In this document: one piece after another, positions 787 to 55,074 of the stretch
Numbering within the stretch: position 1 is the first letter of the stretch
Layout of the letters: each line of letters starts with the position of its first letter
DNA from: Candidatus Poribacteria bacterium
Lineage (GTDB): Bacteria > Poribacteria > WGA-4E > WGA-3G
NCBI GenBank assembly: GCA_012270875.1
Contig: JAAXHI010000558.1
Location: 1,952 to 58,580 of the forward strand
Length of the DNA: 56,629 bases
Direction of reading: 5' to 3'
Notes under the pieces: generated by a model
Told to the model about the DNA's origin: nothing
Databases searched by the model: none
What the model saw: only the letters and a program-made list of their open reading frames with translations
Program-made: the position numbers and the translations under genes

Positions 787-818
787 ATTACGCGCCGACG
801 CATCACTGAATTCAGGCA

Positions 819-2663
819 TTAATCATCATCACGTTCACTCAGCAATTCGCCACGGGCGAGACGTTCCGCGTTCTCGGTCGACCACAGAATGTTCTTCATC
901 AACTTCTGTGCCGTGATGTAACGGGTCGCTGCCAACATGTGCATCCGCCGCTCCTCATCGTCTTCCGACAAATCGTAATGCCGAAACGCGACTTCCAGCA
1001 CTTGGAACATGTGGAGTTCCGCGTCCTCGCGCAGTAGGATGTGTGCCAGTGTCCGCTTCAACGCACCAACGTCATGTCCCTCTTCCAGATATTGATTCAC
1101 CAGAATCTCTGCCTCATAGACCTTCTGGAAGTCCGCGAATTCTTGGAGTCGCGCTAACATTTTATCAACGGAGTCGTAAGTTTCATCAGGTATCCGTTGA
1201 CCCGGTTTTGGGATCCGGGCAGCAGGCATATTCAACCAACGCAAATACGCAAGGAAAACCACACCGTGGAAAATGCCGCGCAGTAAACTCGCACTCGGTG
1301 CATACGCAAAAGCGTGATAAAGCGCGTGTGCGTATGAGTAGATATTCGCCACATCGTGCCAATCGCCTTCATTCTTCAGATGGAAACGGGCTGTACGAAC
1401 CGCTGAAGCGTAAGTCATCGCACGGCAAATGTCCCTCGGATCCACACCGGCGCGCAGTTTCTCTTCGACCACAGCGACAGTCGGCTCAAACTCGTCGCCG
1501 AGCAGTGTCTGCGCAAATTCCGAAATATCGAGTTCCGATGTGTTGGCTTGATTCTCTTCCCAGATGCTATCAAGCCGCTCAAAGACCGGTTCTAACACCG
1601 GCACCGCATCCGCCCACCGCGAGGTCTCCTCATGCCGCGTCCGACTCACCAGATCAACGACAATCGGACGTAAAATCTCGTGTGCGCCATCCCATTCGAC
1701 GTAATCTAACGCCTCAAACATCTTGTTAGCGAAATCGAGGGCATGTCCATCGCCAGTAAAGTAGTAATCCGTCGCTGCTGTGTAGACGAAATCCGCCAGC
1801 ACCGATCTATCGTAATCCCGGTCGTTAAGCGTCAATAAGATACGTTCCGCTGCACCCGAGTGCCGTTTATCCACAAAGTAGCGGAACCATCGCTTGAGCG
1901 TTTCAAGATCGTGGTCCCCGTTCACTTGCGGGAACGGCGCGCGATACGAACGCGCACTTCCAGTCGTCCGACGGCTAATCTGGGTCAAACCGTGCACGAG
2001 AAACAGGTTATGGTCTTTCGGATCAACGTCGTCCCAAAGATTCGCCGCGAGCGTGAGGATCGCAACACCCGACGACCACCCATCACTACTTTTATGTGCA
2101 CCGTAGTGAAGTCCCTGTTGAATAATCTCGTTCGGTGTCGCGCCAGCATCCCGAAGCGCGGTAACAGCCTTTGCGATAAAGAAGGTACTGCGGTCTTTGA
2201 GTCCCCGTTCAAGTGAACGTTTACCGCTATCAATGACCCGCCGTTTCGCTGCCTCCCGCTCGCCTTTCGCCAATCCGACGTACAGATAACCGTCATCTCG
2301 CAATTCGACGGGAAACGCCTTCAAGTCATCGCCAAACGCCAAAAAGCATCCGCCCGATTTCAGGTCGAATTCCCAGTGGTGCCAGTGACAAATAAGCACA
2401 CCATCTCGGATACTGCCTTTCGACATAGGATACCCCATGTGTGGACAGCGGTTATCAACAGCGTAGAACTTGTCCTCAAACTTGAAAACCGCGAGGTGTG
2501 TGCCGTTGACGTGAAAAGGTTTGCCTTCCAAATCCTCGAAATCATCAGCAGGACACAATTGATGGTAAATAAGTTCCGTCTCTACCACCGCATCCACCGG
2601 CAACGCCTCAACGTGGATAGTACCCACACCGGTCTCTTGGGGGGTAAGGGTTGAAGTACGCAT
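819..2663 (-). CDS. Rieske [2Fe-2S] domain protein fused to a large all-helical C-terminal domain of unknown function
   Basis: ORF 819..2693. The start is moved to the internal ATG (MRTSTL) because AGGAG lies 8 nt upstream. The Rieske motifs 'CPHMGYP' and 'CHWHHWEF' (CxH...CxxH) are present. The remaining ~480 aa lack the canonical Rieske-oxygenase catalytic-domain motif. Confidence 0.8.
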   Translation of the reverse strand: MRTSTLTPQETGVGTIHVEALPVDAVVETELIYHQLCPADDFEDLEGKPFHVNGTHLAVFKFEDKFYAVDNRCPHMGYPMSKGSIRDGVLICHWHHWEFDLKSGGCFLAFGDDLKAFPVELRDDGYLYVGLAKGEREAAKRRVIDSGKRSLERGLKDRSTFFIAKAVTALRDAGATPNEIIQQGLHYGAHKSSDGWSSGVAILTLAANLWDDVDPKDHNLFLVHGLTQISRRTTGSARSYRAPFPQVNGDHDLETLKRWFRYFVDKRHSGAAERILLTLNDRDYDRSVLADFVYTAATDYYFTGDGHALDFANKMFEALDYVEWDGAHEILRPIVVDLVSRTRHEETSRWADAVPVLEPVFERLDSIWEENQANTSELDISEFAQTLLGDEFEPTVAVVEEKLRAGVDPRDICRAMTYASAVRTARFHLKNEGDWHDVANIYSYAHALYHAFAYAPSASLLRGIFHGVVFLAYLRWLNMPAARIPKPGQRIPDETYDSVDKMLARLQEFADFQKVYEAEILVNQYLEEGHDVGALKRTLAHILLREDAELHMFQVLEVAFRHYDLSEDDEERRMHMLAATRYITAQKLMKNILWSTENAERLARGELLSERDDD

Positions 2664-2745
2664 AATGAATCTCCTGTTGTAGGTCCGGCTCATAGAAAAT
2701 GATTTTGTTATTCTCTTCTGATTCTAATTCAAACTTGTTATATCT

Positions 2746-2774
2746 ATTATAAGGCTTATGCCCTTTTCTTACAA
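2746..2774 (-). promoter_or_regulatory. Sigma70-like promoter for the Rieske-fusion gene (TTGTAA-N17-TATAAT on the minus strand)
   Basis: The reverse complement reads TTGTAA (2774-2769), a 17-nt spacer, then TATAAT (2751-2746). It lies ~80 nt upstream of the 2663 start in an AT-rich divergent intergenic region. Confidence 0.5.
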
Positions 2775-2806
2775 GTAATTAATCAAGCTTACCAAAATCC
2801 CAAAAT

Positions 2807-2835
2807 TTGACAAAAAATTCGCTACACGCTATACT
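2807..2835 (+). promoter_or_regulatory. Sigma70-like promoter for the PhyH/HD operon (TTGACA-N17-TATACT)
   Basis: TTGACA at 2807-2812, an exact 17-nt spacer, TATACT at 2830-2835. It lies ~36 nt upstream of the ATG at 2871. Confidence 0.55.
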
Positions 2836-2870
2836 TACAAACAACAGGATCACTCGCAAGGAAGAGGACT

Positions 2871-3662
2871 ATGTCTCATCTTAATCCCGAACACCACCGA
2901 AACTGGAAAACGAACGGCTATCTGAGAATCCCGCGCTTTTTCTCTACCGAAGAAGTGGACGCGCTACAAGCATGGGTCGCTGAAATCTCGGACTGGGAAC
3001 CGACACCCGACAAGTGGATGCATCATTACGAATCCACGCCGAAGGGACCGCGGCTCTCCCGCTCAGAAAATTTCGTACCGTATCATACGGATATAAGAGC
3101 CACGGTGACAGATGGCAAAGTATTAGCCGTTGTCTCCGAGTTAATGCGTGAACCCGCAGTCCTCTATAAAGAGAAAATCAACTACAAATATCCCGGCGGC
3201 GGTGGTTATGCTGCCCATCAGGACGCGCCCGCCTACGAGTTTATCGACTACCACATCACCTGTCTAATCTCAGTGGACGCAGCAACGCCTGAAAGCGGAT
3301 GCCTCTATTTCGCACCCGGTCGGCATCAGGAAGGGTTCATCGCACTCGATGAAAAAGGCTGCGTCGCGCCCGAAACCGCTGCAACGATGACGTGGGACGC
3401 AGTGCCAACAGATCCCGGAGACATCCTCCTTTTCGGATCCTATATCCCACACAAGAGTCCGACAAATCGCTCCGACCAACCGAGACGTATTATCTATCTC
3501 ACCTACAACGCCAGATCCCAAGGCGACTGGCGCGAAAAGTATTATACCGACAAACGACAGGCTTTCTCGGAATACGCAGAAGACGGCTCAAACCGAGACA
3601 AACAAATTAGCAAAATCGCACATTTTCGAGGGAAAACAGTAAATCATGCAAAATTACGTTGA
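2871..3662 (+). CDS. PhyH-family Fe(II)/2-oxoglutarate dioxygenase (PhnY*/TmpA-like candidate)
   Basis: 263 aa. 'AAHQDAPAY' gives HxD, with a distal 'YIPHKSP' His and 'PRRIIYLTY' Arg. It overlaps the downstream HD gene by 17 nt. Confidence 0.8.
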   Translation: MSHLNPEHHRNWKTNGYLRIPRFFSTEEVDALQAWVAEISDWEPTPDKWMHHYESTPKGPRLSRSENFVPYHTDIRATVTDGKVLAVVSELMREPAVLYKEKINYKYPGGGGYAAHQDAPAYEFIDYHITCLISVDAATPESGCLYFAPGRHQEGFIALDEKGCVAPETAATMTWDAVPTDPGDILLFGSYIPHKSPTNRSDQPRRIIYLTYNARSQGDWREKYYTDKRQAFSEYAEDGSNRDKQISKIAHFRGKTVNHAKLR

Positions 3663-5596: not shown

Positions 5597-6331
5597 ATGA
5601 TGACAACGTTAAAGCGAAGTTTGGCATTCAGTTTAGGACTCTTGTTTTTCGGGGTCAATGCGTTTTGCGACGTATGGTACAGCGAGAATTTTGACGACTT
5701 CAAAGATGGCGACATCGCCGGGCAAGATGACTGGAAAACGGCAATGAACCAAAAAACTTGCCAAATTGGAAGCGAGGTGACGCGCGGGGACACTGGCAAA
5801 AGTATTCTGGTCACAGAAAACACAATGGTCACCAGAAGTTTTGACGGTACGCATGATGGGATTCAGTACACTTCACTGTTCACGCAGCGGGAAGAAGGCG
5901 CAGGCACAATGCTATTTTATATCGGTGGAGATGCCCTCAAGTGGGGCGGGGCTGCCGTATTTAACATTAAGCCGGATGCCACAATCCACGCACTCGACGG
6001 CACTGCAGGACAACAAGTAGCGGAGGGAAAATTCGGTGAATGGCATCATCTCCGTATCGTGCTTGACTTTAAAGACAGAACTTATGATTTTTACGTCGAT
6101 GACGAAAAGGTCGCCGATGATTTCGGTTTTAGAGGCGAGGGCGGCAAAGGCGGCATAAATCCGAGCCTCAGCTGGATCTTCTTCGGTTGGGACCACCCCA
6201 CCGCGCTGACCAATTATATCGATGACATCGAAATGGGAGACGGCGAAGGCGAAACGGCTGGCAAACCGCAAGCAGTCTCCGCCGCAGACAAACTCGCCAC
6301 CACTTGGGGAAAAATCAAACAGCGATTGTAG
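5597..6331 (+). CDS. Secreted jelly-roll/lectin-like protein carrying the C-terminal 'KLATTWGKIK' tail
   Basis: 244 aa. AGGAGG RBS. Signal peptide 'LAFSLGLLFFGVNAFC'. A Gly/Glu-rich linker precedes the terminal 'DKLATTWGKIKQRL'. Confidence 0.7.
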   Translation: MMTTLKRSLAFSLGLLFFGVNAFCDVWYSENFDDFKDGDIAGQDDWKTAMNQKTCQIGSEVTRGDTGKSILVTENTMVTRSFDGTHDGIQYTSLFTQREEGAGTMLFYIGGDALKWGGAAVFNIKPDATIHALDGTAGQQVAEGKFGEWHHLRIVLDFKDRTYDFYVDDEKVADDFGFRGEGGKGGINPSLSWIFFGWDHPTALTNYIDDIEMGDGEGETAGKPQAVSAADKLATTWGKIKQRL

Positions 6332-6420
6332 CATCTGTTCATGCAACGGTCAAAGTCTGTCAGTTAACAGTAACCCAACGTGAATTTGATAAATATTTAG
6401 GGAAACCGACCTATTTCCTC

Positions 6421-6459
6421 TTAAAGTCCCCCTGATAAGGGGGATTTAGGGGGTTTAAA
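6421..6459. repeat. Dispersed repeat copy with a CCCCC-tgataa-GGGGG hairpin (REP/MITE-like family)
   Basis: 'ttaaagtccccctgataagggggatttagggggtttaaa' is 39/39 identical to the reverse complement of 32453-32491. The companion motif 'gcataagtcctatta' lies ~90 nt downstream, around 6512-6526. Confidence 0.85.
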
Positions 6460-6581
6460 GGACGGAAATTACCGATTTTTGCTTCTACATGTCCGACATC
6501 TGCTCAATTTGCATAAGTCCTATTATAGTAAAGCCCGAAAAGATATGAACATTTTAGCATCCACAAAATACCCTCCCTTGC

Positions 6582-9081: not shown

Positions 9082-9876
9082 ATGAAAAAAGTTTATTTGG
9101 TTCTACTTATCAGTACATTTGTCATCGTTTCTGCGTTCGCAGGAATCCCGAAAGATAAGGATATCCTGCTGTGGATTGGTGAAGGCAGCGGAAAAAAAGC
9201 AGTTGATGGCACAGGAAACGGGAAGGACGGCACATTTGGCGGATCGGCGAAATGGGTTCCCGGACAAGGTAAATATGGGGCTGGCATCGCACTCAGAGGC
9301 AAGGAAACCTATCTTGAAGTGCCCAAAGTTATTACAGAAGCGGGAAGCCTACTCTTCTGGTTCAAACCCGATTGGGACGGTAAGGACGACGACGACTATC
9401 GGCTTTTTGATGCCAGCCTTGGGGGTATCTACTTCTTCGTAGGAAAAGGGTCTGCACACCCGGACATCACACCCGCAGAATTCGGGTTCTATTTTGAAGC
9501 AGCAGACGACGGCGACTGGCAAGATGTCGAATTCGATCCGACAGGTATCATCAAAAAAGAGGAGTGGTTCCATTGCGCTGTTACGTGGGATTTCACTGGC
9601 GAACCCCCATTTGTCTATATTGACGGTAAAGAGCAAGCGACGAGCCGAAAGATAGGCGGCGGCTTCCCTGCACTTCACGAAAAACCGAGATTCGGTTGGG
9701 AAACCGTTCAGTATATCGCGCTGACCAACGGCGCAGACGGTATCATTGACGAAATCTCGTTCTGGGCACGTGCCTTAAATGAAAACGAGATCCAAGAGAT
9801 GATGGATGTCAGTTTGGATGTTGAAGCGGTCGGAAAATTGGCTGTTATGTGGGGTAAATTGAAAGTAACCCGATAA
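9082..9876 (+). CDS. Secreted LamG (Laminin_G_3 / concanavalin-like) domain protein with a C-terminal 'GKLAVMWGKLK' tail
   Basis: 264 aa. Signal peptide 'LVLLISTFVIVSAFA'. 'IDEISFWARALNENEI' is the LamG_3-type motif. The terminal sequence is 'LDVEAVGKLAVMWGKLKVTR'. Confidence 0.8.
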   Translation: MKKVYLVLLISTFVIVSAFAGIPKDKDILLWIGEGSGKKAVDGTGNGKDGTFGGSAKWVPGQGKYGAGIALRGKETYLEVPKVITEAGSLLFWFKPDWDGKDDDDYRLFDASLGGIYFFVGKGSAHPDITPAEFGFYFEAADDGDWQDVEFDPTGIIKKEEWFHCAVTWDFTGEPPFVYIDGKEQATSRKIGGGFPALHEKPRFGWETVQYIALTNGADGIIDEISFWARALNENEIQEMMDVSLDVEAVGKLAVMWGKLKVTR

Positions 9877-9997: not shown

Positions 9998-11284
9998 TCA
10001 CAAAAGCGGTACTGATGTTTTCCCAAAAACTTGCGGGAGCCAAAGACTCAACTCCGGCACATAAGTCACCAACACAAGTGCCACCAACAACAGTGCAATA
10101 AATAACAGAACCGAGCGGTAAAGCATCACAACAGACCGATCAAATTTCATGCTGGAGATGAACAGATTCATGCCGACCGGCGGCGTCAAATACCCGATTT
10201 CGAGATTCGTCAGCACAATAATGCCGAGATGCGCCTTGTCAATCCCAAATTGCTCAGCGATAGGCAGTAGCAACGGCACTACGATAATCACCGCTGAAAA
10301 GATGTCCATCAGACACCCAACAATGAGTAAGAAAATATTGAGTCCGATGAGCGTAATAACTCGGTTCTCTGTTGTTGATTGAATCCAGTCGAGGATAATT
10401 GTCGGCACATCAAGCGTAATGAGGTAGTTCGTCAATCCCAAAGCGATACCGAGGATGATGAGGATCGCACCCACAAGCAGTGTGCTTTCTTTGACGATAC
10501 GTGGCAACATCTTCAGTGAAATCGAGCGATGAATCACGAGCTCTACGATACAGGCATAGATAGCAGTTAAAGCAGCCGCCTCATCCAATGTAACGACACC
10601 CGACAGAATACCGCCTAACACAATAAAGGGTAACAGCAGTTCCCACTTCGCTGCCCAGAACGCCTTCAGGAACACCTCCAAATCAAAGGGTGTCGTCTCA
10701 GTCTTTTTGATAACACTCCAGCCAGAACAGTAGACACTCAGAACACCGAGAATAAGCAATCCGGGGATAATACCAGCGAGAAACATTCTATCAATCGGAA
10801 CTTGGGCAATGATGGCGTAGAGAATGAGCGGAACACTCGGTGGGAACAGCAGCCCGATGCTCCCAGAAGCCGTTATCAAGCCAAGCGAAAACTTTTCGTT
10901 ATAGGTCTGCCGCAGGATCGGATAGACCAATCCACCGAGCGCGATAATCGTGACACCGGATGCACCTGTGAAAGTCGTAAAGAACGCACAAGTCCCCAAG
11001 ACAACCACAGCGATGCCACCGGGCAGCCAGCCAACACTCGCACGCGCGAATGCGACCAACCGCTGCGGTGCCTTCCCTTCAGCGATGATATAGCCAGCAA
11101 AAGTGAAGAGTGGGATAATCAGGATTGTCGAATTCCGGGTGAGCCGATTGAAATCAATCAGGATTGTCGAAATCGGTTCGCCTGCCATAGCGTAGCCAAT
11201 AATCGAAGCCCCACCCAATAAAACGAAAAGTGCCCCGCCGAGAAGCGCGAATGCGACCAATCCGATACCAATTATCAATCCCAT
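9998..11284 (-). CDS. dctM: TRAP transporter large permease subunit
   Basis: 428 aa, polytopic, with typical DctM length and sequence character. Its ATG overlaps the stop of the upstream small subunit (TAATG). Confidence 0.9.
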   Translation of the reverse strand: MGLIIGIGLVAFALLGGALFVLLGGASIIGYAMAGEPISTILIDFNRLTRNSTILIIPLFTFAGYIIAEGKAPQRLVAFARASVGWLPGGIAVVVLGTCAFFTTFTGASGVTIIALGGLVYPILRQTYNEKFSLGLITASGSIGLLFPPSVPLILYAIIAQVPIDRMFLAGIIPGLLILGVLSVYCSGWSVIKKTETTPFDLEVFLKAFWAAKWELLLPFIVLGGILSGVVTLDEAAALTAIYACIVELVIHRSISLKMLPRIVKESTLLVGAILIILGIALGLTNYLITLDVPTIILDWIQSTTENRVITLIGLNIFLLIVGCLMDIFSAVIIVVPLLLPIAEQFGIDKAHLGIIVLTNLEIGYLTPPVGMNLFISSMKFDRSVVMLYRSVLLFIALLLVALVLVTYVPELSLWLPQVFGKTSVPLL

Positions 11285-11820
11285 TACTCCGACTCTCCTT
11301 CGACGGTATCAGGTGTATACACACCACTTGTGAAATGGATGCCAATTTGTAACACCACATGGATGCCGATGAGAACAAAACCGTACGGAATAATCGACTT
11401 CGCCCACCACAAAGGGACACTCCCAATTAATACAGCCTCGCTGGACTTCTCATCCTCAATAAAGAGAAAACCGTAATACGCTAAAATTCCGACAACAACC
11501 AAAGCAGCACAGTCAATAGCAAGGTTAGTCCAACGGGTGATTTTTTCGGGCAGAATTCGATTCAGCACATCAATACTGATATGTCGTCTCTCACAGGTAG
11601 CAAGTGCGGCACCCAAGAAACACAGCCAGAGCGTCAAGTGCTGAAGCATCGTATCGCTCCACAACAGGCTCGCACTGAACACATAACGCATAACGATTTT
11701 GAGGATCGCAAGTCCGAGCATCATCGCTACAATGACACACAACCCACCCGTCTCGACTTTACCGAGGAAGGTATTCGCGCTCTGCAGGAAAGCGTTTGGG
11801 GACTGACCTTTTTTAAGCAT
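11284..11820 (-). CDS. dctQ: TRAP transporter small permease subunit
   Basis: 178 aa, four hydrophobic helices, immediately upstream of dctM and abutting the LarA-like stop (TAAATG). Confidence 0.8.
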   Translation of the reverse strand: MLKKGQSPNAFLQSANTFLGKVETGGLCVIVAMMLGLAILKIVMRYVFSASLLWSDTMLQHLTLWLCFLGAALATCERRHISIDVLNRILPEKITRWTNLAIDCAALVVVGILAYYGFLFIEDEKSSEAVLIGSVPLWWAKSIIPYGFVLIGIHVVLQIGIHFTSGVYTPDTVEGESE

Positions 11821-13080
11821 TTACGCCTCCGACGCTAACACCTGAATCCCAGCGGAAGGCAGCACAGCAACTTTCGCCTCAGACGGAAGCCTCTCAGCGA
11901 ACAGCGCGATTAACTGATCGAGATCTCTAAAGAGGAGCGCACCCGGATGTTTCTTGTAAAAATCATCTACCAAAAAGTGTTCTGACCAGACATGTAATTG
12001 ATCTTGCGTTCCGAGTTGTGGCGGTGGCAGTTCAGATTGTGTCCGCTCCGCGCGCTGCTGCGCGAAACGTGCGTAATCAATCTCCTCAAAGAGTCCGTGG
12101 TAACAGATACCGTCTGACGCAGGGTTGAGTGCCATTGTATGTGCTTTCTCAAAATAATGCGTCGCCCACAACGCCTTACCCGTTTGGATCGGATCGCTAT
12201 CCAGCGGATAACAATTCAGCACAACGAGATCGGTCTCTTTTCGACTCGCCTCTGGAATCTCCGTACCATAAGTGTCTAATGCGAAGTACGCGCCTTTACG
12301 ATGTGCCTGCACAAAATCGCCTACGAACAGTCCACAGATTTCACGACGACTGTTGAGGACTGTGTTCACAATCACATCAAGGTCGAGGACACCCGCCACT
12401 TCCTCAGCAAAATCGCGATGATCGGGTTCACTGCCTTTTCTTTCGATAACAGCATGCCCGCGTCCGGGTGAGAAAGTATGGAAATAGAACATTGTGGCGA
12501 AACCGGCGATGCCCGGCACGACCAACTTCGCACCACCACCAAAACCGACAGACCCGTGAGGATAGATACCGCCGAGACAGATTTTGAAATCCGAATCAGC
12601 GATGACACGATTGAGATAGATAGGCATCCCGTTACTAAGATTCCCCAACGCACGCAGATCCCCGCTCATAAAGTCGTGGCTCGTTGCCTCATATTCAGCG
12701 GCGACATCCGCACCGATTTTCTTCGCCACCTCTTCATCCGTGAGCGGTCGGTGAGAACCGCCCCCAACAACAAATCGGATTTCGGACTTCGGGACACCCG
12801 CCGATGCCAACTCACGCAGCAGAAACGGAATAACTTGCGCTGCAGGTGTCGGGCGACTCAAGTCATCAACGACGATACCGGCACTCTTTTTCCCCTTCGC
12901 GAGCTCCGAAATACGAGGCGTGCCAATCGGTTCGGCAAATGCCTTCTCAATTTGTGTATCCGAAAGTACGGGCGCGTCTTTCGGTCCAAGTACCTCCACT
13001 TCCCAACCGGTCGGAAAATTCAAAGTCAGTTCCGCATCCCCGTACCAAGCACGAGAGTAGACTGTCGCAGTGTTGTTCAT
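11821..13080 (-). CDS. LarA-like nickel-pincer-cofactor-dependent 2-hydroxyacid racemase/epimerase family protein (DUF2088), paralog 1
   Basis: 419 aa. It has 'VVDDLSRPTP', 'GGGSHRPLTDEE' and 'IYPHGSVGFGGGAKLVVPG...FYFH', matching the LarA catalytic His pair, the cofactor-binding Lys and the Ni-ligand His positions. Confidence 0.8.
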   Translation of the reverse strand: MNNTATVYSRAWYGDAELTLNFPTGWEVEVLGPKDAPVLSDTQIEKAFAEPIGTPRISELAKGKKSAGIVVDDLSRPTPAAQVIPFLLRELASAGVPKSEIRFVVGGGSHRPLTDEEVAKKIGADVAAEYEATSHDFMSGDLRALGNLSNGMPIYLNRVIADSDFKICLGGIYPHGSVGFGGGAKLVVPGIAGFATMFYFHTFSPGRGHAVIERKGSEPDHRDFAEEVAGVLDLDVIVNTVLNSRREICGLFVGDFVQAHRKGAYFALDTYGTEIPEASRKETDLVVLNCYPLDSDPIQTGKALWATHYFEKAHTMALNPASDGICYHGLFEEIDYARFAQQRAERTQSELPPPQLGTQDQLHVWSEHFLVDDFYKKHPGALLFRDLDQLIALFAERLPSEAKVAVLPSAGIQVLASEA

Positions 13081-13136
13081 AACTATCCTCCATTTTTGGA
13101 TCGCGGGTTAAGAATATCTGAAAAGATTGCCTTGTT

Positions 13137-14402
13137 CTATTGAGAGGACGCTGGTATTAGCACTTGCGTACCCGCCACAGGTAAGACTGTAACTTTCGCG
13201 TATGCTGGCAATTTCTCTGCGAACAACTGAATCAGCACCTCTAAATCACGGAAGAGCAGCGAGGCGGGGTATTCCTTGTAGAAATCATCCGCCAGAAAAT
13301 ACTCAGACCAGACGTGCAGTTGCCCACGCCGCCCAATTTTCGGTGTAGGCAGCTCCGGCGGCACCTGATCGGCTCGCTGCCGAAGATAGCGCGCATAATC
13401 AATCCGATCAAATAGCCCGTGGTAGCAGCTGCTATCGCTCGCAGGATAAAGTGCCATCGTATAGGCATCTTCAAAATAGGTTAAAGCCCCCAACGCCTTA
13501 TCCAGTTGAATCGCATCAGCATCCAGCGGGTAGCAGTTAATCACCACCAGATCCGACCCCGTTTGATTCGTTTCCGGTATCTCCGTGCTGTAAGTATCCA
13601 TCGCGAAATGCGCGCCTTTACGATGCGCTTGTATAAAGTCGCCGACAAACAACCCACAGATTTCGCGGCGGCTATTCATCACAACATTGGCGATAGCGTC
13701 AAGTCCGAGAACACCGGCAGCCAATTCAGCACAGTCGCGACGATCCGGTTCATCGCTCTCTCCTTCAATTATCGCGGGACCTCTGCCAGGCGGAAATGTA
13801 TGGAAATAGAACATCGTGGTAAAACCTGAAATACCGGGAACAATTAACTTCGCACCGCCACTAAAACCGACGGAACTGTGCGGATAGATACCACCGAGAC
13901 AGATTTTGAAATCCGAATCAGCGACAACACGGTTGAAGTAGATAGGCATCCCGTTTTCAAGGCTACCGAAGGCACGTAGGTCACCGCCCATAAAATTATG
14001 GTTCGATACCTCATATTCAGCGGCGATATCCGCACCTATCTTCTTGACTATATCTTCGTCTCTTAAGGGACGGTGGGCACCGACCCCGCAAACGAACCGG
14101 ATTTCGGACTTCGGGACACCCGCCGCGCTCAACTCACGCAGCAGAAATGGGATAACCTTATATGCTGGTGTCGGACGGCTTAGATCGTCAACAACGATGG
14201 CAGCACTCTTTTTCCCTCTCGCCAACTCCGAAATACGAGGCGTGCCAATCGGTTCGGCAAATGCCTTCTCAATTTGTGCATCCGAAAGCGCAGGTGCGTC
14301 TTTAGGACCCAATACTTCGACTTCCCAACCCGTCGGGAAATTCAAAGTCAGTTCCTCATCTCCATACCAAGCACGGGAACGGACAGTGGCTACGTTGTTC
14401 AT
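13137..14402 (-). CDS. LarA-like racemase/epimerase family protein, paralog 2
   Basis: 421 aa, colinear with paralog 1 with long identical DNA stretches. It has the same 'DDLSRPTP', 'GAHRPL' and 'PHSSVGFSGGAK' motifs. Its ATG overlaps the pyrG stop (ATGA). Confidence 0.8.
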   Translation of the reverse strand: MNNVATVRSRAWYGDEELTLNFPTGWEVEVLGPKDAPALSDAQIEKAFAEPIGTPRISELARGKKSAAIVVDDLSRPTPAYKVIPFLLRELSAAGVPKSEIRFVCGVGAHRPLRDEDIVKKIGADIAAEYEVSNHNFMGGDLRAFGSLENGMPIYFNRVVADSDFKICLGGIYPHSSVGFSGGAKLIVPGISGFTTMFYFHTFPPGRGPAIIEGESDEPDRRDCAELAAGVLGLDAIANVVMNSRREICGLFVGDFIQAHRKGAHFAMDTYSTEIPETNQTGSDLVVINCYPLDADAIQLDKALGALTYFEDAYTMALYPASDSSCYHGLFDRIDYARYLRQRADQVPPELPTPKIGRRGQLHVWSEYFLADDFYKEYPASLLFRDLEVLIQLFAEKLPAYAKVTVLPVAGTQVLIPASSQ

Positions 14403-16965: not shown

Positions 16966-17799
16966 ATGAAAGGCAACTTGAGATTTGTATTGACAATTTG
17001 CAAACGACACACCTTTGTGGTGTGCTTACTTCTAATAGGCGCGCTCTGTCTACATACGACAGAATTCGCGGCAGCCGAACCCTTGGATCCGGACTTAGTC
17101 CTATATTTTGATTATGAAGACTTCAAGGGGGATACCGTCCTTGAAAAATCTGGACGAGGCTATGACGGCGCGATTAATGGCAAGGTCACACAATCCAAAG
17201 ACGGGAAGTTTGGCAGCGCAGCCCATTTCGTCCTTGGCAGTTTCCTTGACTTAGATGGTGCCAATATCAAGCCTGACGACATTCCTACTGAAGGCATGAG
17301 CGTCGTCGCGTGGATTAACGTTGAAGCTGTCGCTGATATGGCGATCTTCAACGCACGCGCAGCAGATAATACATGGCTTGTACACCCAGAAGCACGCGGT
17401 AGTGGTAAATATCGTTGGCTCAATCGGAGTCCCGGCAGCACGATATTTGATATCCGCGCCGGTGACAACAAAGATAACGAATGGCAACATTACGCCGGTA
17501 CATTCAGTAGGGCTGACGGGTTAGCCGTGCTTTACATCAACGGAAAAAATGTCGGTGAAGAGAAAGCGCGTGTTCCGACACCGATCGCTGGCGATTGGGA
17601 TCAAGGGGCACGTGTCGGCTATAATATTGACGACAACCGTCCATTCGCTGGACTCATGGATGACCTTAACATCTGGAAACGTGGGTTGACAGAAGAAGAG
17701 GTCAATATGATTATGAACGAGGGTGTTGACGCGTTCCTCGCTGTCGAAGCACAAGGGAAACTCGCTACAACATGGGGAAAACTCAAGGCATCAAAGTAA
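16966..17799 (+). CDS. Secreted LamG-domain protein with 'GKLATTWGKLK' tail, tandem paralog 1
   Basis: Track ORF 16837..17799 is trimmed to the ATG at 16966, which is preceded by 'ttcatctaaaggag', a sequence conserved before all three paralogs. A signal peptide is present. It has 'MDDLNIWKRGLTEEEV' and the terminal 'AVEAQGKLATTWGKLKASK'. Confidence 0.8.
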   Translation: MKGNLRFVLTICKRHTFVVCLLLIGALCLHTTEFAAAEPLDPDLVLYFDYEDFKGDTVLEKSGRGYDGAINGKVTQSKDGKFGSAAHFVLGSFLDLDGANIKPDDIPTEGMSVVAWINVEAVADMAIFNARAADNTWLVHPEARGSGKYRWLNRSPGSTIFDIRAGDNKDNEWQHYAGTFSRADGLAVLYINGKNVGEEKARVPTPIAGDWDQGARVGYNIDDNRPFAGLMDDLNIWKRGLTEEEVNMIMNEGVDAFLAVEAQGKLATTWGKLKASK

Positions 17800-17834
17800 A
17801 AAGAAATGGTTCATCTAAAGGAGGACCTTAAAAG

Positions 17835-18659
17835 ATGAAACGACATCTTATACTAACCCCTTATCTGATGTGCTTACTTCTCATAAGCACACTCTGTCTG
17901 CTTACAGCAGAAATGCAGGACGTATCCGCTGAAGCCTTAGATCCGGATTTGGTCGTGTATTTCGATTATGAAGACTTCAAGGGAAAGACCGTCTTTGAAA
18001 AATCCGGACGCGGCTATGACGGTGAGATCAACGGGGATATCACACAATCCGATGACGGGAAGTTCGGCAAAGCCGGTCATTTTGAAGCCGGCAGCTTCCT
18101 CGATTTAGATGGCGCTAATGTTGATCCTGACGATATTCCCACTGAAGGCATGAGCGTCGTCGCTTGGATTAATGTTGAATCTATCTCAGATATGGCACTT
18201 TTCAACGCACGCGCAGCCGACGGCACCTGGCTTGTACACCCAGAAGCACGGGGCGATGGAAATTACCGTTGGCTCAATCGGGGTCCTAACCCCGGTAGGA
18301 CCATATTTGACATCCGGGCAGGCGAAAACAAAGCCAATCAATGGCAGCATTACGCCGGCACCTACAGTCGCGCTGACGCAAAAGCCGTGCTCTACATCAA
18401 CGGCAAACAAGTCGGTCAAGAAGCGTCCCGCCTTGACACGCCTATCGCAGACAACTGGGGCCAAGGCGCACGTGTCGGTTTCAACATCGACAACAAGCGC
18501 CCTTTCACCGGACTCATGGACGACCTCAACGTCTGGAAACGTGGCTTGACAGAAGAAGAAGTCAATATGATTATGAACGACGGCGTTGACGCGTTTCTTG
18601 CCGTCGAAGCACAAGGGAAACTCACCACGACCTGGGGAAAACTTAAGGCATCAAAGTAA
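17835..18659 (+). CDS. Secreted LamG-domain protein with 'GKLTTTWGKLK' tail, tandem paralog 2
   Basis: 274 aa. It has the conserved RBS block 'ttcatctaaaggagg' and a signal peptide. It is highly similar to paralogs 1 and 3. Confidence 0.85.
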   Translation: MKRHLILTPYLMCLLLISTLCLLTAEMQDVSAEALDPDLVVYFDYEDFKGKTVFEKSGRGYDGEINGDITQSDDGKFGKAGHFEAGSFLDLDGANVDPDDIPTEGMSVVAWINVESISDMALFNARAADGTWLVHPEARGDGNYRWLNRGPNPGRTIFDIRAGENKANQWQHYAGTYSRADAKAVLYINGKQVGQEASRLDTPIADNWGQGARVGFNIDNKRPFTGLMDDLNVWKRGLTEEEVNMIMNDGVDAFLAVEAQGKLTTTWGKLKASK

Positions 18660-18816
18660 AATGAGACCTATCAAAAAGGTTTAACCCATTAAAACTGTTC
18701 TGTGGTGTCGGATACATCTGCGGTTTACACGAATGGAGAATGGTAAACTTTAATGCAGATGGTTATATGTTGTAAAAAAGTAAAGGAATAGTTCATCTAA
18801 AGGAGGACCCCAAAAG

Positions 18817-19641
18817 ATGAAACGAAATCTTATACTAACCCCTTACCTAATGTGTTTATTTCTCATAGGCACGCTCTGCCTGCTTATGGCAGACATTCAG
18901 GACGCATCCGCTCAAATTTTAGATCCGGATTTGGTCCTGTATTTCGATTACGAAAACTTCGACGGAAATACCGTCCTTGAAAAATCTGGACGTGGCTACG
19001 ATGGCGAGATTAATGGCGATGTCACACAAGCCGATGACGGGAAATTCGGCAAAGCCGCCCATTTCGCCGCCAACAGTTTCCTCGATTTAGACGGCCCCAA
19101 TGTTAAGGCTGAGGATATTCCAACCGAAGGCATGAGTCTCCTCGCGTGGATTAACGTTGAATCCGTATCCGATATGGCACTTTTCAACGCACGCGCAACC
19201 GATGGCACCTGGCTCGTACACCCAGAAGCACGGGGCGACGGAAACTTCCGTTGGCTCAACCGGGGGCCCAACCCCGGTAGAACGATATTTGATATCCGCG
19301 CTGGCAAAAACGAAGCCAATAAATGGCAGCATTACGCTGGCACGTTCAGTTACGCAGACGAATTAGCCGTGCTCTACATCAACGGTGAAAAGGTCGGTGA
19401 AGAAAAGTCTCGCCTTGACACGCTTATCGCTGACAACTGGGGGCAGGGTGCACGGGTCGGTTTTAACATCGACGATAAACGTCCTTTCACCGGACTCATG
19501 GACGAATTTAACCTCTGGAAACGCGGGTTGTCAGAGCAAGAAGTCCTTGACATCATGACCAACGGCGTCGCAGCAACGCTCACCGCAGTCGATCCGCAAG
19601 GTAAACTCGCGACTACATGGGGCAAGCTCAAAGCCAACTAA
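18817..19641 (+). CDS. Secreted LamG-domain protein with 'GKLATTWGKLK' tail, tandem paralog 3
   Basis: 274 aa. It has the conserved RBS block and a signal peptide. The terminal sequence is 'AVDPQGKLATTWGKLKAN'. Confidence 0.85.
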   Translation: MKRNLILTPYLMCLFLIGTLCLLMADIQDASAQILDPDLVLYFDYENFDGNTVLEKSGRGYDGEINGDVTQADDGKFGKAAHFAANSFLDLDGPNVKAEDIPTEGMSLLAWINVESVSDMALFNARATDGTWLVHPEARGDGNFRWLNRGPNPGRTIFDIRAGKNEANKWQHYAGTFSYADELAVLYINGEKVGEEKSRLDTLIADNWGQGARVGFNIDDKRPFTGLMDEFNLWKRGLSEQEVLDIMTNGVAATLTAVDPQGKLATTWGKLKAN

Positions 19642-21669: not shown

Positions 21670-21747
21670 AATAATCGTAATCTTAACAATTTGATTCGGA
21701 TTGATAGCACGCAAGATTTGTCAGACAAACAAGGGAGCATACACAAG

Positions 21748-22929
21748 ATGAAAAATTGGCTTATAGGATTGCTGGTAATCGGACTCGTATCCGTTTTCGG
21801 ATGTCAACCCACCAGCAAAGACCAACAGACAACCCAAGGTGAGGTTAGAATCGCTGTGGCTGGACCCTTTACAGGTAATGCAGCAGCATTTGGAGAGATG
21901 ATTAAACGGGGTGCCGAGCTCAGGGCAAAACACGTCAATGATGCTGGCGGCATCAAAGGTATGAAGTTAACACTCGTTCCCGGGGATGATACCGGGACAG
22001 AAAAGGAAGCAATATCTGTTGCCACGCGCTTCGCCACTGACCGACGAATCCTCGCGGTCGTCGGGCACTTTAACAGCGCGTGTTCCTTAGCAGGTAAACC
22101 CATTTACGCAGATAACGGGATCGTTGAATTGTCTCCAGGTTCAACAAATGTAAGCGTCTGTGAAGGGAGCGATTGGACTTTTCGGAATTTGTATCGAGAT
22201 GATTTTCAGGGGAAGTTCATCGCTAAATATATTAAGGACTACATGAAAGAGTTTCAGACCGTCGCCATCCTGTTTGATAACGACGACTATGGACGTGGAC
22301 TTCGGGACGGTTTCAGTGCCGCTGCTGAAGAAATTGGAATTGAGATTGTTGCCTCTGAAGCCTACGACCGAGACAATACCGATTTTAAAGCACAACTCAC
22401 CAGTATTAAAGCGAAGAACCCAGACCTTATCTTCATCTCCGGTCTTTACAGTCAAGCAGGACTCATCGCGAAACAGGCGCGTGAGACTGGAATTACCGCA
22501 CAGTTTTTCGGAGCTGATGGTGTGGATTCTCCAGATTTCCTCATAATTGCAGGTGCTGCTGCAGAAGGAACATACCTAACAACACCATTTACGTTTGAAT
22601 TAGGTGGGGAAAACGCAAAACAGGTCGCTTCATCATTTGAGGATGAATACGGTGTTCCACCGGATACATGGGCCGCGCTAACTTACGATGCCGTGGGCAT
22701 GATTGTGGAAGCAATTGAGAAAACCTATAATAAGGATGCCACCCTCGCCGAAAATCGAAAAGCCATCCGCGATCATTTGGCATCATTAGACACGCCAGAA
22801 GAAGGGTACAAAGGCATTACCGGATTAACCTATTTTGACAAAAACGGGGACACTGTTAATAAACCCGCCTACGTTAAAATTGTTAAAGATGGTGAATTCA
22901 CGACCGCTCCACAGCAAGTGCTCGATTAA
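21748..22929 (+). CDS. Branched-chain amino acid ABC transporter substrate-binding (lipo)protein, LivJ/LivK family
   Basis: Track ORF is trimmed to the ATG at 21748 (RBS AAGGGAG). The lipobox is 'SVFGC'. 'IRIAVAGPFTGNAAAFG' is typical of Peripla_BP_6 proteins. Confidence 0.85.
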   Translation: MKNWLIGLLVIGLVSVFGCQPTSKDQQTTQGEVRIAVAGPFTGNAAAFGEMIKRGAELRAKHVNDAGGIKGMKLTLVPGDDTGTEKEAISVATRFATDRRILAVVGHFNSACSLAGKPIYADNGIVELSPGSTNVSVCEGSDWTFRNLYRDDFQGKFIAKYIKDYMKEFQTVAILFDNDDYGRGLRDGFSAAAEEIGIEIVASEAYDRDNTDFKAQLTSIKAKNPDLIFISGLYSQAGLIAKQARETGITAQFFGADGVDSPDFLIIAGAAAEGTYLTTPFTFELGGENAKQVASSFEDEYGVPPDTWAALTYDAVGMIVEAIEKTYNKDATLAENRKAIRDHLASLDTPEEGYKGITGLTYFDKNGDTVNKPAYVKIVKDGEFTTAPQQVLD

Positions 22930-32450: not shown

Positions 32451-32625
32451 GTTTTAAACCCCCTAAATCCCCCTTATCAGGGGGACTTTAAGAAGTCGTC
32501 GGTTTTAAACCCAACCCCCTTATCAGGGGACTTTAAGAAGTCGTCGGTTTTAAACCCAACCCCCTTATCCCCCCTTATCAGAGGGGTAGGGGACTTTAAG
32601 GGGAAATACGTAAGTCCTTACTATT
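32451..32625. repeat. Cluster of ~3 abutting copies of the CCCCC/GGGGG hairpin repeat (REP/MITE-like family), ending in 'cgtaagtcctta'
   Basis: 32453-32491 is identical to the reverse complement of 6421-6459. The unit 'actttaagaagtcgtcggttttaaaccc' is repeated. The cluster lies between convergent genes. Confidence 0.85.
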
Positions 32626-35023
32626 CCGTTTCGCTGTCCTCATCCACAAGCCCATAGTAACTACCGTGGCGACTGTAATAACCGTAGGATTTGGCGTGCC
32701 TCGGATTGATCATATTACAAAGCACACCGATCCCCTTAGTCGGAAACGCCTCCGTCAAATGCCGTATCCCCGTGAGAATATCAAACCGTCGGGTCTTCGT
32801 GATGTCAAAAACATAGACGACAGCATCAACGATGTTTGCCAGAATCATCGGATCGGCAACAGCGCGAACAGGTGGGGAGTCAATCACAATGACATCATAC
32901 TCGGATTTCGCGAGTTCCAACCATTGGGTCATCATCTCTGAGTTGAGAAGTTCAATCGGATTCGGCGGCACAGTCCCGCTCGGGACTAAGAATAGATCGG
33001 GAATTCCAGTCTGTTTAACTGTTGCCTGAAGGACATCGTATCCATTTTCTGAGTTCAAGTGGATAAGGGCTTCGCTTAATCCCGGTTTGCGTACATCAAC
33101 GTGCGGAACAGGTAGTGCTGATGTCTCAATATCTGTCGTATCCTCTACCGGCAGGAGCTGTTCTCTCGGAAAGGTATTGTGTTGCGAAGGTCGTCGCATA
33201 TCGGCATCAATTAGTAAAACCCTATTACCCCTCTGTGCAAGGGCAACGGCAAGGTTCGATGAGATCGTGCTTTTACCCTCACCGCGCGTCGCGCTCGTGA
33301 CGAGAATCGTTTTCACAGAGGCACCCGGATTCAGGAACGGCAGTTTGGCTTGCAGCACACGAAACGCCTCGGCTGTCCTCGAATTCGGAGCATCGTGAAC
33401 CATCAGCGGCAGCCGATAGGAGCTGCGCCTTTTGATAGAGGGAAGCACCCCAAGAAAACTCGGCGATTCGGGAAGCGCGTCCAACTGTCGGACAGCCTCC
33501 TCTAAGCGGAGATAGGTATCTTTGAAATAATTCTTGGCGACAGCGAAGGTCATACCGAGTAGCATCCCGACGAATGCTCCTAAGGCGAGATTCAATTTTT
33601 GGCGCGGCTTCAGCGGTTCTTCCGGGGCACGTGCCCTATCCATCACCTTGATACTTTCCGAACGCGCTTGGGCGAAAACCTCCGCCTCCCGCATTTTTGT
33701 CTCCAAAACGATGACCTGAGCGTTGTAAATCTCAACATCTCGCTTAAGGCGATAGAACTCTAATTGGTCAGGCGACCATTCACGGAGCTCAGCGAAGTGT
33801 GTGTTAATTTGAGCAGTAACTTCATCTTTCTGCTTTTTAAGACTAATAGCAGCTGCCTCCGCCTCATTGACTTTCTCGGTGATGACTTGGTGGAGCGGAT
33901 TATAGGAAGATGTCGTACTTTTTATCTCTTTCTCCGATTTAGCAAGGCGTGCCGCCGTTTCTGCAATCTTCTTATCAATTGCAGTCACTTCAGGATGCGT
34001 TTCATCATATTTGCCAAGGAGTTCCGCCTTATCGATTTCGTATTGGTTTAAATTATCTTGTAGTTTGGAATGTGACGGATTTCGTGCGGTCGTTTCCGAT
34101 ATAATCTCCTCTGATAGGCCTTCCAATTCTTCGCGATAAGTAGCGAGTCTCAATTCAGCCCCTATCAAAAGGTTTATTAATTCATTTTCTTTCACTTGAA
34201 GTGCCAGAATGATCTGTGCTTGCGTCCCACCTTCCGCATTTAAGGTAAGTTTCGGGTGTTGTTCTTGGAATGCGAAGAGTGCTTCGTCTGCATTTGTAAG
34301 TCTCTCCTGTGTCTGATTCAGCATCCCTTGTGGAAGCGGCTTTCGCCACCACTCCATTCTTTCAACCGCTTCTGCTTCAACAACCCCCTGAAATACAGCA
34401 GCGATCCTGTTCGCAAGATGCTGTGCCCGCTCTGAGTCTCGTTGTTGCACGGTAACGGTAATCACTTTTCCATCCGGTGATTCTTCGACCTTTAACTGCT
34501 CATCAATAAGCGTTTTAACAAAGAAATCCTGCCACTCGTCGTCTGTAAGTTCTCCCTGTTCTGTAGCATCCTGATCCAGTCCAATATTCAACACATCTGC
34601 AAGCCACACGACAGTCCAGCCGCGATGAACCGGTAACGGATCAAGCAGTCCCTCGTCTCTGAGTTGGCGCACTGCCGGTGTAATCACAAGGTCGCGGGAT
34701 TGTAGCTGCGCCGCGAAAGCACTCACAGAGGTCCCACCCAGTAACCCAGATATCGGTAACTGTGAAAGTAGGGAGGACGCGGATTGACTATCTAAAACAC
34801 GAAGGGTCGTCTCGGATTGAAAAACCGGCGGCGTAAGATCCGTTATAAGAAACGCCGCGAAAACGGAAAGCAGAAAAATCAGAAGAACACTCCACTTATT
34901 CCGAAAGAGTATCCAAAAATAGTCTGACAATCGAATCTCTTTAACTTCTTCAAGCTGCCTATCGGCTGTCTCTGGCATCTGTAACCTCGTAGTGAAATTT
35001 TTCTTAGTGCCTTTTAAGTGCAT
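32621..35023 (-). CDS. Polysaccharide co-polymerase / tyrosine autokinase (Wzc/GumC-like)
   Basis: 800 aa. An N-terminal Wzz-type TM and coiled-coil region is followed by the Walker A segment 'SATRGEGKSTISSNLAVALAQ' and a Tyr-rich tail 'KSYGYYSRHGSYYG'. Confidence 0.88.
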   Translation of the reverse strand: MHLKGTKKNFTTRLQMPETADRQLEEVKEIRLSDYFWILFRNKWSVLLIFLLSVFAAFLITDLTPPVFQSETTLRVLDSQSASSLLSQLPISGLLGGTSVSAFAAQLQSRDLVITPAVRQLRDEGLLDPLPVHRGWTVVWLADVLNIGLDQDATEQGELTDDEWQDFFVKTLIDEQLKVEESPDGKVITVTVQQRDSERAQHLANRIAAVFQGVVEAEAVERMEWWRKPLPQGMLNQTQERLTNADEALFAFQEQHPKLTLNAEGGTQAQIILALQVKENELINLLIGAELRLATYREELEGLSEEIISETTARNPSHSKLQDNLNQYEIDKAELLGKYDETHPEVTAIDKKIAETAARLAKSEKEIKSTTSSYNPLHQVITEKVNEAEAAAISLKKQKDEVTAQINTHFAELREWSPDQLEFYRLKRDVEIYNAQVIVLETKMREAEVFAQARSESIKVMDRARAPEEPLKPRQKLNLALGAFVGMLLGMTFAVAKNYFKDTYLRLEEAVRQLDALPESPSFLGVLPSIKRRSSYRLPLMVHDAPNSRTAEAFRVLQAKLPFLNPGASVKTILVTSATRGEGKSTISSNLAVALAQRGNRVLLIDADMRRPSQHNTFPREQLLPVEDTTDIETSALPVPHVDVRKPGLSEALIHLNSENGYDVLQATVKQTGIPDLFLVPSGTVPPNPIELLNSEMMTQWLELAKSEYDVIVIDSPPVRAVADPMILANIVDAVVYVFDITKTRRFDILTGIRHLTEAFPTKGIGVLCNMINPRHAKSYGYYSRHGSYYGLVDEDSETE

Positions 35024-35045
35024 CTCCCAGGCGTATATCCCTCAA

Positions 35046-54693: not shown

Positions 54694-55074
54694 TTAACGA
54701 ACGGTTTTGATGTCGCCCCAAGTGGTGGTTAATTCCGCTTGAGCGTCAACAGCAGTCGGCAAATCTTTTAGAGCCGCAATATCCTCTGCACTTAAAGCGC
54801 GGTTCCAGAGACGCACCTCATCGTCTTCACCACCAAATTTAAGTGCCTTCCCAAATTTTCCGTCAACCCACTCAGGGTTAGAAATTTCACCGTCATGACC
54901 GTTTCCACTCAAATCTGCAGCCAGTGAGCCTTCTCCTTCATCGTACGCATGATGTAGGATAAGCCCATCTGAAAAATCCGCAGAGACAGTTGGCGTAAAC
55001 ACCATGAGAGGTGTTACGAAGAGGACTACCATCACGTATAGTGCTAACTTGTAAGTCAATATTGCGTTTTTCAT
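54694..55074 (-). CDS. Mini LamG-family protein: signal peptide, N-terminal ~50 aa and C-terminal tail retained, with the central ~135 aa of the LamG core missing (in-frame deletion derivative, possibly a pseudogene)
   Basis: Track ORF 54694..55113 is trimmed to the ATG at 55074 (GGGAGG 5 nt upstream). The product aligns to both ends of the 51855..52634 product. The junction is 'FGKALKFGG|EDDEVRLWNRAL'. It ends 'ELTTTWGDIKTVR'. Confidence 0.65.
   Translation of the reverse strand: MKNAILTYKLALYVMVVLFVTPLMVFTPTVSADFSDGLILHHAYDEGEGSLAADLSGNGHDGEISNPEWVDGKFGKALKFGGEDDEVRLWNRALSAEDIAALKDLPTAVDAQAELTTTWGDIKTVR

Follow-up and report, generated by a model that had tools for sequence, protein, structure and literature searches.

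A lineage-restricted, strictly C-terminal peptide tag on signal-peptide proteins of the Poribacteria

A 56,629-nucleotide stretch of contig JAAXHI010000558.1 from a Candidatus Poribacteria bacterium (GenBank assembly GCA_012270875.1, positions 1,952 to 58,580), referred to here as the window, encodes seven signal-peptide proteins that end in the same tail of ∼20 amino acid residues with the core GKLxTTWGxLK. This tail is a lineage-restricted, strictly C-terminal tag that is conserved as a peptide and is carried by signal-peptide proteins independently of their domain composition. The original prediction described it as a candidate undescribed sorting or anchoring tag: a modular, undescribed C-terminal tag is what the data reveal, whereas the role in sorting or anchoring is proposed by analogy only.

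The seven tail-bearing proteins of the window

A six-frame scan of the window for WGx[ILV]K returns the seven open reading frames (ORFs) listed below and a single chance match in a 19-codon ORF.

5597..6331, + strand: signal-peptide protein, 244 aa, with a divergent, probably ConA-like body and a Gly/Glu-rich linker; tail at 6269..6328 (QAVSAADKLATTWGKIKQRL)
9082..9876, + strand: signal-peptide Laminin_G_3 protein, 264 aa; tail at 9814..9873 (LDVEAVGKLAVMWGKLKVTR), VMWG variant
16966..17799, + strand: signal-peptide Laminin_G_3 protein, 277 aa, first of three tandem paralogs; tail at 17737..17796 (LAVEAQGKLATTWGKLKASK)
17835..18659, + strand: signal-peptide Laminin_G_3 protein, 274 aa, second tandem paralog, modeled with AlphaFold; tail at 18597..18656 (LAVEAQGKLTTTWGKLKASK)
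18817..19641, + strand: signal-peptide Laminin_G_3 protein, 274 aa, third tandem paralog; tail at 19579..19638 (LTAVDPQGKLATTWGKLKAN)
51855..52634, − strand: signal-peptide Laminin_G_3 protein, 259 aa; tail at 51858..51917 (LDVEAAGKLSTTWGRLKAGL)
54694..55074, − strand: mini-protein, 126 aa, consisting of a signal peptide, the first LamG strands, the last LamG strand and the tail; tail at 54697..54756 (TAVDAQAELTTTWGDIKTVR)

These are exactly the seven products for which a common tail had been predicted, and in each of them the core ends 2 to 3 residues before the stop codon. They share the motif V[ED]xxGKLxTTWGxLK, with the V, L, W, G, and K residues in register across all seven. The degenerate DNA pattern for TTWGx[LI]K matches the window 6 times versus 0.00 matches expected (100 dinucleotide-preserving shuffles), and the seventh copy (9082..9876) has VMWG in place of TTWG. 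The N-termini of all seven products consist of a basic n-region, a hydrophobic h-region, and an AxA-like site, which fits the predicted presence of a signal peptide on every one of them, as judged by a hydrophobicity heuristic.

In the five full LamG proteins, the Laminin_G_3 (PF13385) match stops 27 to 30 residues short of the C-terminus. Close homologs bear the name LamG domain-containing protein [Candidatus Poribacteria bacterium]. The 5597..6331 product shares only 21 to 28% full-length identity with the other six and has a weak match to a Sialidase-like carbohydrate-binding module (CBM). Its body had been described as differently built; it does form a separate BLAST family, but PF13385 is found on some of its homologs, and the body probably has a divergent ConA-like fold as well. 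The 54694..55074 mini-protein matches only the last 32 positions of the Laminin_G_3 model and is an in-frame internal deletion of a paralog of the 51855..52634 product, so that the tail has indeed survived the deletion of the LamG core.

A syntenic counterpart of the mini-protein is present in another genome (mini-gene, AAA ATPase, and accD; locus L124, 4001..4168 and 6060..6580), in which only the signal peptide and the tail are left (55 aa, P0027). The LamG paralog beside that mini-gene has decayed to a remnant (..WVNGKFGKALEFGGP..). The retention of signal peptide and tail through two independent in-frame reductions may reflect selection for the minimal product or may be due to chance. The 16966..19641 triplet, whose members are 77 to 79% identical to each other, is located between kdsB/pyrG and a PAP2 gene and is found again, together with its flanks, on other metagenome contigs.

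Position of the tail and its occurrence among genomes

A degenerate DNA pattern for GKLxTTWGx[LI]K, run against 185,579 species genomes, matched at least 119 stretches, and the 119 stretches fetched with this pattern, about 1 Mb of Poribacteria DNA, were analyzed further. In six-frame translations of these loci, all 143 matches to the strict motif lie 1 to 12 residues from a stop codon, mostly 2 to 3. A loose motif, [KR][LIVMF]xxxW[GAS]x[ILVMF][KR], is found within 12 residues of the stop in 197 of 200 cases, the other three being apparent chance matches outside real genes. A 40-aa profile returned only fragments of 30 to 74 aa, uninformative on domain diversity, but contributed additional tails to a better profile. 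An exhaustive search of 1.84 billion cluster representatives with a tail profile of 24 positions yielded 363 representatives at E ≤ 1e-3. Among the newly listed matches, the motif is no more than 8 residues from the end in about 126 of 136; the remainder appear to be read-through or fused gene calls, apart from a single repetitive false positive. Restriction of the tail to protein C-termini, the check proposed originally, is thus seen with the strict motif, with the loose motif, and in the database matches.

Among the genome matches listed, more than 90% of the records are labeled as Candidatus or uncultured Poribacteria, and the tail is, on this sample, restricted to the Poribacteria lineage. 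The other records comprise unlabeled “uncultured bacterium” bins together with single bins labeled “Pseudomonadota” and “Deltaproteobacteria”. The “Pseudomonadota” bin (RHO2_bin_21, JAPPIL010000222.1) has two carriers of the tail, and the same sponge sample also gave a Poribacteria bin; these carriers are likely to be there by misbinning. The “Deltaproteobacteria” record (JAFDHL010000343.1) has a 28-codon ORF with the tail and nothing more. Most of the matches listed are from sponge or coral metagenome bins, and complete Poribacteria chromosomes among them (OY761015.1, OZ242029.1, and CBDBPM010000002.1) each carry several separate tail loci.

Conservation of the tail peptide

The consensus of the tail is [LF]-A-V-[ED]-[PA]-x-G-K-L-x-T-T-W-G-x-[LI]-K, followed by 1 to 8 mostly basic residues, for a total of ∼20 residues. 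In 150 tails, the G residue is conserved in 91%, K in 99%, L in 95%, and the two T residues in 96% and 99%, while W, G, and the final K are invariant. The search pattern itself had set some of these positions; the Val residue at position −5 (five residues before G-K-L) was absent from every search pattern and is conserved in 96% of the tails. For each of the conserved residues V, G, K, L, and T, every synonymous codon is in use, including six for Leu and four each for Val and Gly, which shows that it is the peptide that is under selection. With the synonymous sites scrambled, a repeat or mobile cassette at the DNA level is ruled out.

Conservation of the core spans almost every position, not just one helical face, which points to recognition by a protein. 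In the Poribacteria-only family of the 5597..6331 product, the tail is retained in orthologs down to 44% identity, and distant orthologs carry drifted versions of it (KLASHWAVLK, KLASYWANIK, and KLATTWAELK). Pelagic Poribacteria metagenome-assembled genomes (MAGs) from the Arabian Sea and from a 3000-m ocean sample carry the S[YH]WA variant: Arabian9_MAG_50 (L126, 6261..6293, − strand) and OC6_3000m_MAG_233 (L127, 469..501, + strand) both encode DKL[AV]SYWAxIK on an ortholog of the 5597..6331 product. Such coherent drift of the tail in pelagic lineages suggests lineage-specific coevolution with a putative reader.

Diversity of the tail-bearing proteins

The 124 complete carrier ORFs from the fetched loci fall into 16 body clusters without mutual BLAST similarity. 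Their Pfam domains include Laminin_G_3, a duplicated PA14-like module, a reprolysin-like metalloprotease combined with ankyrin repeats, PD40 and BNR/Ycf48-like propellers, the 3-keto-disaccharide hydrolase domain 3keto-disac_hyd (DUF1080), and a DUF3108-like domain. In addition, there are giant carriers of 968 to more than 1,900 residues that combine He_PIG with lamin-tail domains (LTD), and several carrier families have no Pfam match. Among 38 representatives of full length taken from the exhaustive search, 19 contain LamG and 6 are Kelch propellers; the rest contain CBM60, CBM4_9, CBM9, DUF4960, PD40, or F5/8 type C domains. Across all carriers, at least 12 Pfam families are represented, and most of the carriers consist of lectin-like, carbohydrate-binding, or beta-propeller modules, with some enzymes among them. 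The tail is therefore modular, as had been predicted, and is not limited to close paralogs of a single family.

One more carrier is a 363-aa esterase-like protein with a hydrophobic N-terminus that ends in ..GKLPTTWGEMKRQ / ..GARGKLPTTWGEMKRQ and is encoded on the IMG/VR viral contig IMGVR_UViG_3300024518_000011 (L125, 1422..2513, − strand). This contig could belong to a Poribacteria phage or prophage with a tagged enzyme or could be misclassified.

Coupling of the tail to export

When the same hydrophobicity heuristic was run identically on the carriers and on the other ORFs of the fetched loci, a signal-peptide-like N-terminus without a later transmembrane segment was called in 119 of the 124 carriers (96%) versus 211 of the 683 other ORFs (31%), in agreement with the predicted tie between the tail and signal-peptide proteins. 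Lipobox-like sites are found in only 3 of the 124 carriers, so these are mostly type I signal peptides. In the AlphaFold model of the 17835..18659 product, residues 3 to 28 form a separate helix. The window also encodes exported proteins that lack the tail, namely, a periplasmic binding protein (21691..22926), a Wza-like exporter (35049..36317), and a repeat protein (41315..42838); the tail therefore marks a subset of the exported proteins.

Structure and physical properties of the tail

In the AlphaFold2 model of the 17835..18659 product (a 37-sequence alignment; mean pLDDT, the predicted local distance difference test score, of 82), the body resembles lectin-type jelly-rolls, such as the clostridial neurotoxin Hc, the lectin domain of trans-sialidase, and domain 4 of AbnA. 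The last strand of the jelly-roll (residues 226 to 234) is followed by the usual short helix (240 to 249) and then by a predicted tail helix (251 to 273). In the model of the 5597 family, the last strand is at residues 208 to 215 and is likewise followed by the tail. Thus, the tail is predicted to lie outside the folded domain, and in neither model does it contribute a strand to the sandwich; in particular, the 17835 model does not place it as the obligatory last beta-strand of LamG, an explanation on which the original prediction would have had to be abandoned.

The mean Eisenberg hydrophobicity of the tail 20-mers is about 0, and 11 mostly polar residues separate the VEP-like start from the basic end. 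The helical hydrophobic moment (at 100 degrees) is 0.06 to 0.25 for 6 of the 7 window tails and 0.48 for the remaining one. An amphipathic-helix membrane anchor is rejected on the low hydrophobic moment and the mean hydrophobicity of about 0. Between the conserved K and the C-terminus, the tails carry a mean net charge of +2.95, and a slightly acidic stretch precedes this segment. Of the residues that follow LK, 29% are K/R versus 5.5% D/E; the tail usually ends in one or two basic residues, not in an Arg cluster, and its final residue is K/R in 53% of cases. Acidic residues also occur at the variable position behind WG, and the net charge of one window tail is negative.

Gene neighborhoods

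When the genes next to the tail genes in the fetched loci were clustered, the only groups to emerge were expanded housekeeping or enzyme families (Gfo/Idh/MocA, sulfatases, and PhyH), genes in orthologous synteny (for example, ASPIC/UnbV and a TPR lipoprotein), and PBP1c. The window itself contains mostly housekeeping and transport genes, plus an exopolysaccharide (EPS) export pair (32624..36317, − strand) that consists of a Wzc-like chain-length determinant/tyrosine kinase (Wzz, GNVR, and AAA_31) and a Wza-like Poly_export+SLBB protein. Near this pair are sugar-nucleotide genes (DegT aminotransferase, UDP-glucose dehydrogenase, PfkB, and HAD), and no exosortase-like gene was seen adjoining it.

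Several other loci of the window are of interest in their own right. The 41315..42838 ORF (+ strand) encodes a protein of 507 aa whose N-terminus resembles a signal peptide; the protein contains about nine repeats (..DIYAQRI..G..LW..GVP[VI]C..), matches no Pfam family, lacks the tail, and belongs to a repeat family that is probably propeller-like. Two adjoining paralogs of ∼420 aa (11821..14402, − strand), directly downstream of TRAP-transporter-like permease genes (9998..11820), may be LarA/DUF2088-like, by sequence impression. At 16..3659, a 624-aa Rieske-domain protein is encoded between two PhyH (phytanoyl-CoA dioxygenase) paralogs; genes with PhyH domains and gene clusters of this kind in Poribacteria have been catalogued by Kamke et al. 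2014 (PMC3909097).

Possible function of the tail

By analogy with other C-terminal tags, the chances are slightly in favor of a shared machine that reads the tail once the protein has been exported and that sorts, secretes, or anchors these mostly lectin-like proteins. The carriers would be exported via Sec with ordinary type I signal peptides, and a single shared reader encoded elsewhere in the genome, such as a receptor, a pilot lipoprotein, a translocon, or a transpeptidase-like enzyme, would then recognize the exposed tail, either at the outer membrane or in the periplasm. This reader would route the tagged subset of proteins to the cell surface or into the medium, or would hold it there, with the tag either cleaved or not. 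The logic would be that of many substrates served by one machine, as in PEP-CTERM/exosortase or the C-terminal domain of type IX secretion (T9SS). An intramembrane protease of the known kinds cannot serve as the reader, since no segment of the tag spans the membrane. A more specific version, in which Poribacteria have a new envelope sorting or surface attachment pathway based on a soluble ∼20-residue KLxTTWGxLK-CTERM read outside the cytoplasmic membrane by a receptor, translocon, or transpeptidase, has a somewhat less than even chance of being correct.

Several points weigh against a shared reader of the tail. No partner gene among the clustered neighbors of the tail genes in the fetched loci adjoins more than three tail-body clusters, there is no obvious reader candidate within the window, and the neighborhood analysis found no processing enzyme, receptor, or secretion system, even though substrates unlinked to their reader are to be expected of a many-to-one system. 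By hydrophobicity, the tail contains no transmembrane segment and thus lacks the helix that defines all characterized short sorting signals. The structural evidence for the tail is weak, as the tail helix of the 17835 model is predicted with moderate confidence (pLDDT about 68) and the 5597-family model is poor (mean pLDDT 53.5, tail at about 30) and indicates no more than that the tail does not belong confidently to the fold. Finally, the signal-peptide calls are heuristic, and the lineage restriction and the copy number per genome come from a sample, namely, the matches listed.

The absence of a dedicated partner gene from the neighborhoods is also what would be expected if the tail needed no reader at all. 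As a cationic Trp-containing peptide (an acidic V-E/D start followed by K..W..K..K/R), it could by itself bind lipid head groups or anionic polymers of the envelope, for example, lipopolysaccharide, acidic exopolysaccharide, or the membrane interface, and hold the exported lectins non-covalently on the cell surface. Interfacial peptides typically have a single Trp with lysines on both sides, and such an anchor would also fit the invariant lysine-flanked Trp of the tail, its positive charge and frequent terminal K/R, and the Wza/Wzc-like EPS export locus in the same window. Bulk electrostatics, however, would hardly require the near-complete conservation of K-L-x-T-T-W-G-x-L-K, which is a signature of specific protein recognition; the hydrophobicity and, in 6 of the 7 window tails, the hydrophobic moment are well below those of a membrane-anchoring amphipathic helix, and neither the acidic residues tolerated after WG nor the net negative window tail fit well. 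A reader-free anchor is therefore regarded as unlikely.

It is still less probable that the tail is a C-terminal pro-peptide or degron, read by a periplasmic protease of the Ctp/Prc or another type for maturation, activity, or turnover, with the destination of the protein unchanged. The tail is exposed, flexible, located at the extreme C-terminus, coupled to export, and kept in frame even in decaying paralogs, all of which would suit a protease substrate. Nevertheless, PDZ-type readers need a fixed free C-terminus, whereas the core of the tail lies 1 to 12 residues from a variable end; a common turnover signal for lectins, propellers, proteases, and giant adhesin-like proteins is hard to explain; and no such protease was seen near the tail genes.

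Recognition of the peptide by the sponge or coral host, as a mark of the symbiont on its surface proteins, would agree with the origin of most listed matches from sponge or coral metagenome bins and with the eukaryote-like adhesion or lectin modules of the carriers, but the retention of the drifted tail on an orthologous protein in pelagic, apparently free-living Poribacteria makes a host-directed label very improbable. Lastly, a fold element (the last strand or a capping helix) of one LamG subfamily, to which the ConA/LamG-like bodies of all seven window carriers and the extension of the usual LamG C-terminal helix into the tail in the AlphaFold model might point, or else a DNA-level repeat or annotation artifact, is contradicted by the data and hardly credible, given that the Pfam LamG model ends before the tail begins, that the tail outlasts deletion of the LamG core and also caps propellers (Kelch, PD40, and BNR), CBMs, proteases, and giant proteins of the Ig/LTD type, and that its synonymous sites are fully scrambled and its chance expectation in the window is 0.00.

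Implications

Poribacteria are dominant, uncultured sponge symbionts, and what is at stake is the route by which their many lectin-like and eukaryote-like proteins are displayed or secreted. A tag on hundreds of exported proteins across the phylum provides a sequence handle on the candidate surface or secreted proteome and a concrete target for phylogenetic profiling of the machinery, in the manner of exosortase and rhombosortase. The tryptic peptide L-x-T-T-W-G-K is common to many members, so that sponge metaproteomes already in existence allow a direct test of whether the tail is kept or removed. Should the tag be read with no segment that spans the membrane, protein sorting in Gram-negative bacteria would gain a new design principle. 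The tag would then represent a new class of Gram-negative sorting signal, apart from the tripartite transmembrane-type signals and the folded T9SS domain, and the pathway would govern the large lectin-like and eukaryote-like surface repertoire of the phylum.

Comparison with known sorting signals

The tails of the seven window proteins have no match to any named model in Pfam at E ≤ 1 or in NCBIfam at E ≤ 10, the tails of nine other carriers have no NCBIfam match at E ≤ 0.1, and literature searches on the motif and on sorting or secretion in Poribacteria found no description of the tail in the library searched. The original impression that this is not a recognized named sorting signal accordingly holds up. 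Kamke et al. 2014 (PMC3909097) reported matches to the T9SS-like C-terminal domain in Poribacteria and no structural genes for Por secretion in the single-cell genomes, and left the secretion route open.

A convenient yardstick is the list of criteria for short C-terminal sorting signals proposed by Haft (bioRxiv 10.1101/2023.06.07.544157, section 5). The tail shows the C-terminal position (criterion 1), multiplicity (criterion 2, seven copies on one 56.6-kb contig and several loci per complete chromosome), invariant signature residues (criterion 3), signal peptides (criterion 6), and unrelated carriers (criterion 7). It has no hydrophobic segment of transmembrane length (criterion 4) and partly fits the basic cluster at the end (criterion 5), with 29% K/R after LK and usually one or two basic residues.

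These features recall the tripartite signals of the PEP-CTERM/exosortase, GlyGly-CTERM/rhombosortase, MYXO-CTERM/myxosortase, LPXTG/sortase, and PGF-CTERM/archaeosortase systems, which likewise combine short homology at the extreme C-terminus with signal peptides and nearly invariant residues, end in basic residues, are lineage-restricted, and occur in many copies per genome on unrelated, scattered substrates. Unlike them, the tail has 11 polar residues instead of a hydrophobic transmembrane segment, matches no CTERM model, and has no exosortase-like gene seen with it, so that its exclusion from the PEP-CTERM, GlyGly-CTERM, and LPXTG-like classes is upheld. No classical transmembrane-type C-terminal signals were found in the about 1 Mb of sampled Poribacteria DNA.

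Short C-terminal peptides with other roles offer partial parallels. The secretin S-domain of the PulD-PulS type is a ∼20-residue C-terminal peptide that is disordered alone and helical when bound, and the pilotin lipoprotein captures this peptide and delivers the secretin to the outer membrane or holds it there. The tail is of the same length and is also found on exported proteins, but the secretin/pilotin system is not known from proteins other than secretins, with one substrate per pilotin, whereas the tail is common to hundreds of unrelated substrates and no pilotin-like partner was found. In E. coli, PBP5 and PBP6 are signal-peptide proteins held at the membrane by a short C-terminal amphipathic helix without a transmembrane helix. 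Those anchors are strongly amphipathic, hydrophobic, and not conserved across families, unlike the conserved linear motif of the tail; the PBP5 segment taken for comparison has a moment of 0.43 and a hydrophobicity of 0.38, compared to 0.06 to 0.25 (6 of 7 window tails) and about 0, respectively. Encapsulin cargo-loading and microcompartment encapsulation peptides are short conserved terminal peptides that follow a variable linker on unrelated cytoplasmic cargo without signal peptides. The resemblance of the encapsulin peptide (..L-x-I-G-S-L-K) to the ..L-x-T-T-W-G-x-L-K of the tail is superficial, and 96% of the tail carriers, unlike encapsulin cargo, bear signal peptides.

The C-terminal domain of T9SS substrates (TIGR04183/PF18962) is, like the tail, a non-membrane C-terminal signal on Sec-exported cargo that is often of the lectin, propeller, or adhesin type. 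Once the cargo has been exported, this domain is read and leads to secretion or to attachment at the surface, and the likeness of the tail to the domain is one of logic only. The T9SS domain is a folded Ig-like beta-sandwich of about 70 to 100 residues, whereas the tail, with about 20 residues, is far shorter, as had been noted from the outset, and is predicted to be helical or disordered with no sandwich. T9SS models had no match on the tail, including the last 236 residues of a giant carrier. By analogy, then, the tail appears most similar in its logic to the T9SS domain or to a PEP-CTERM-type signal, while being a member of neither class.

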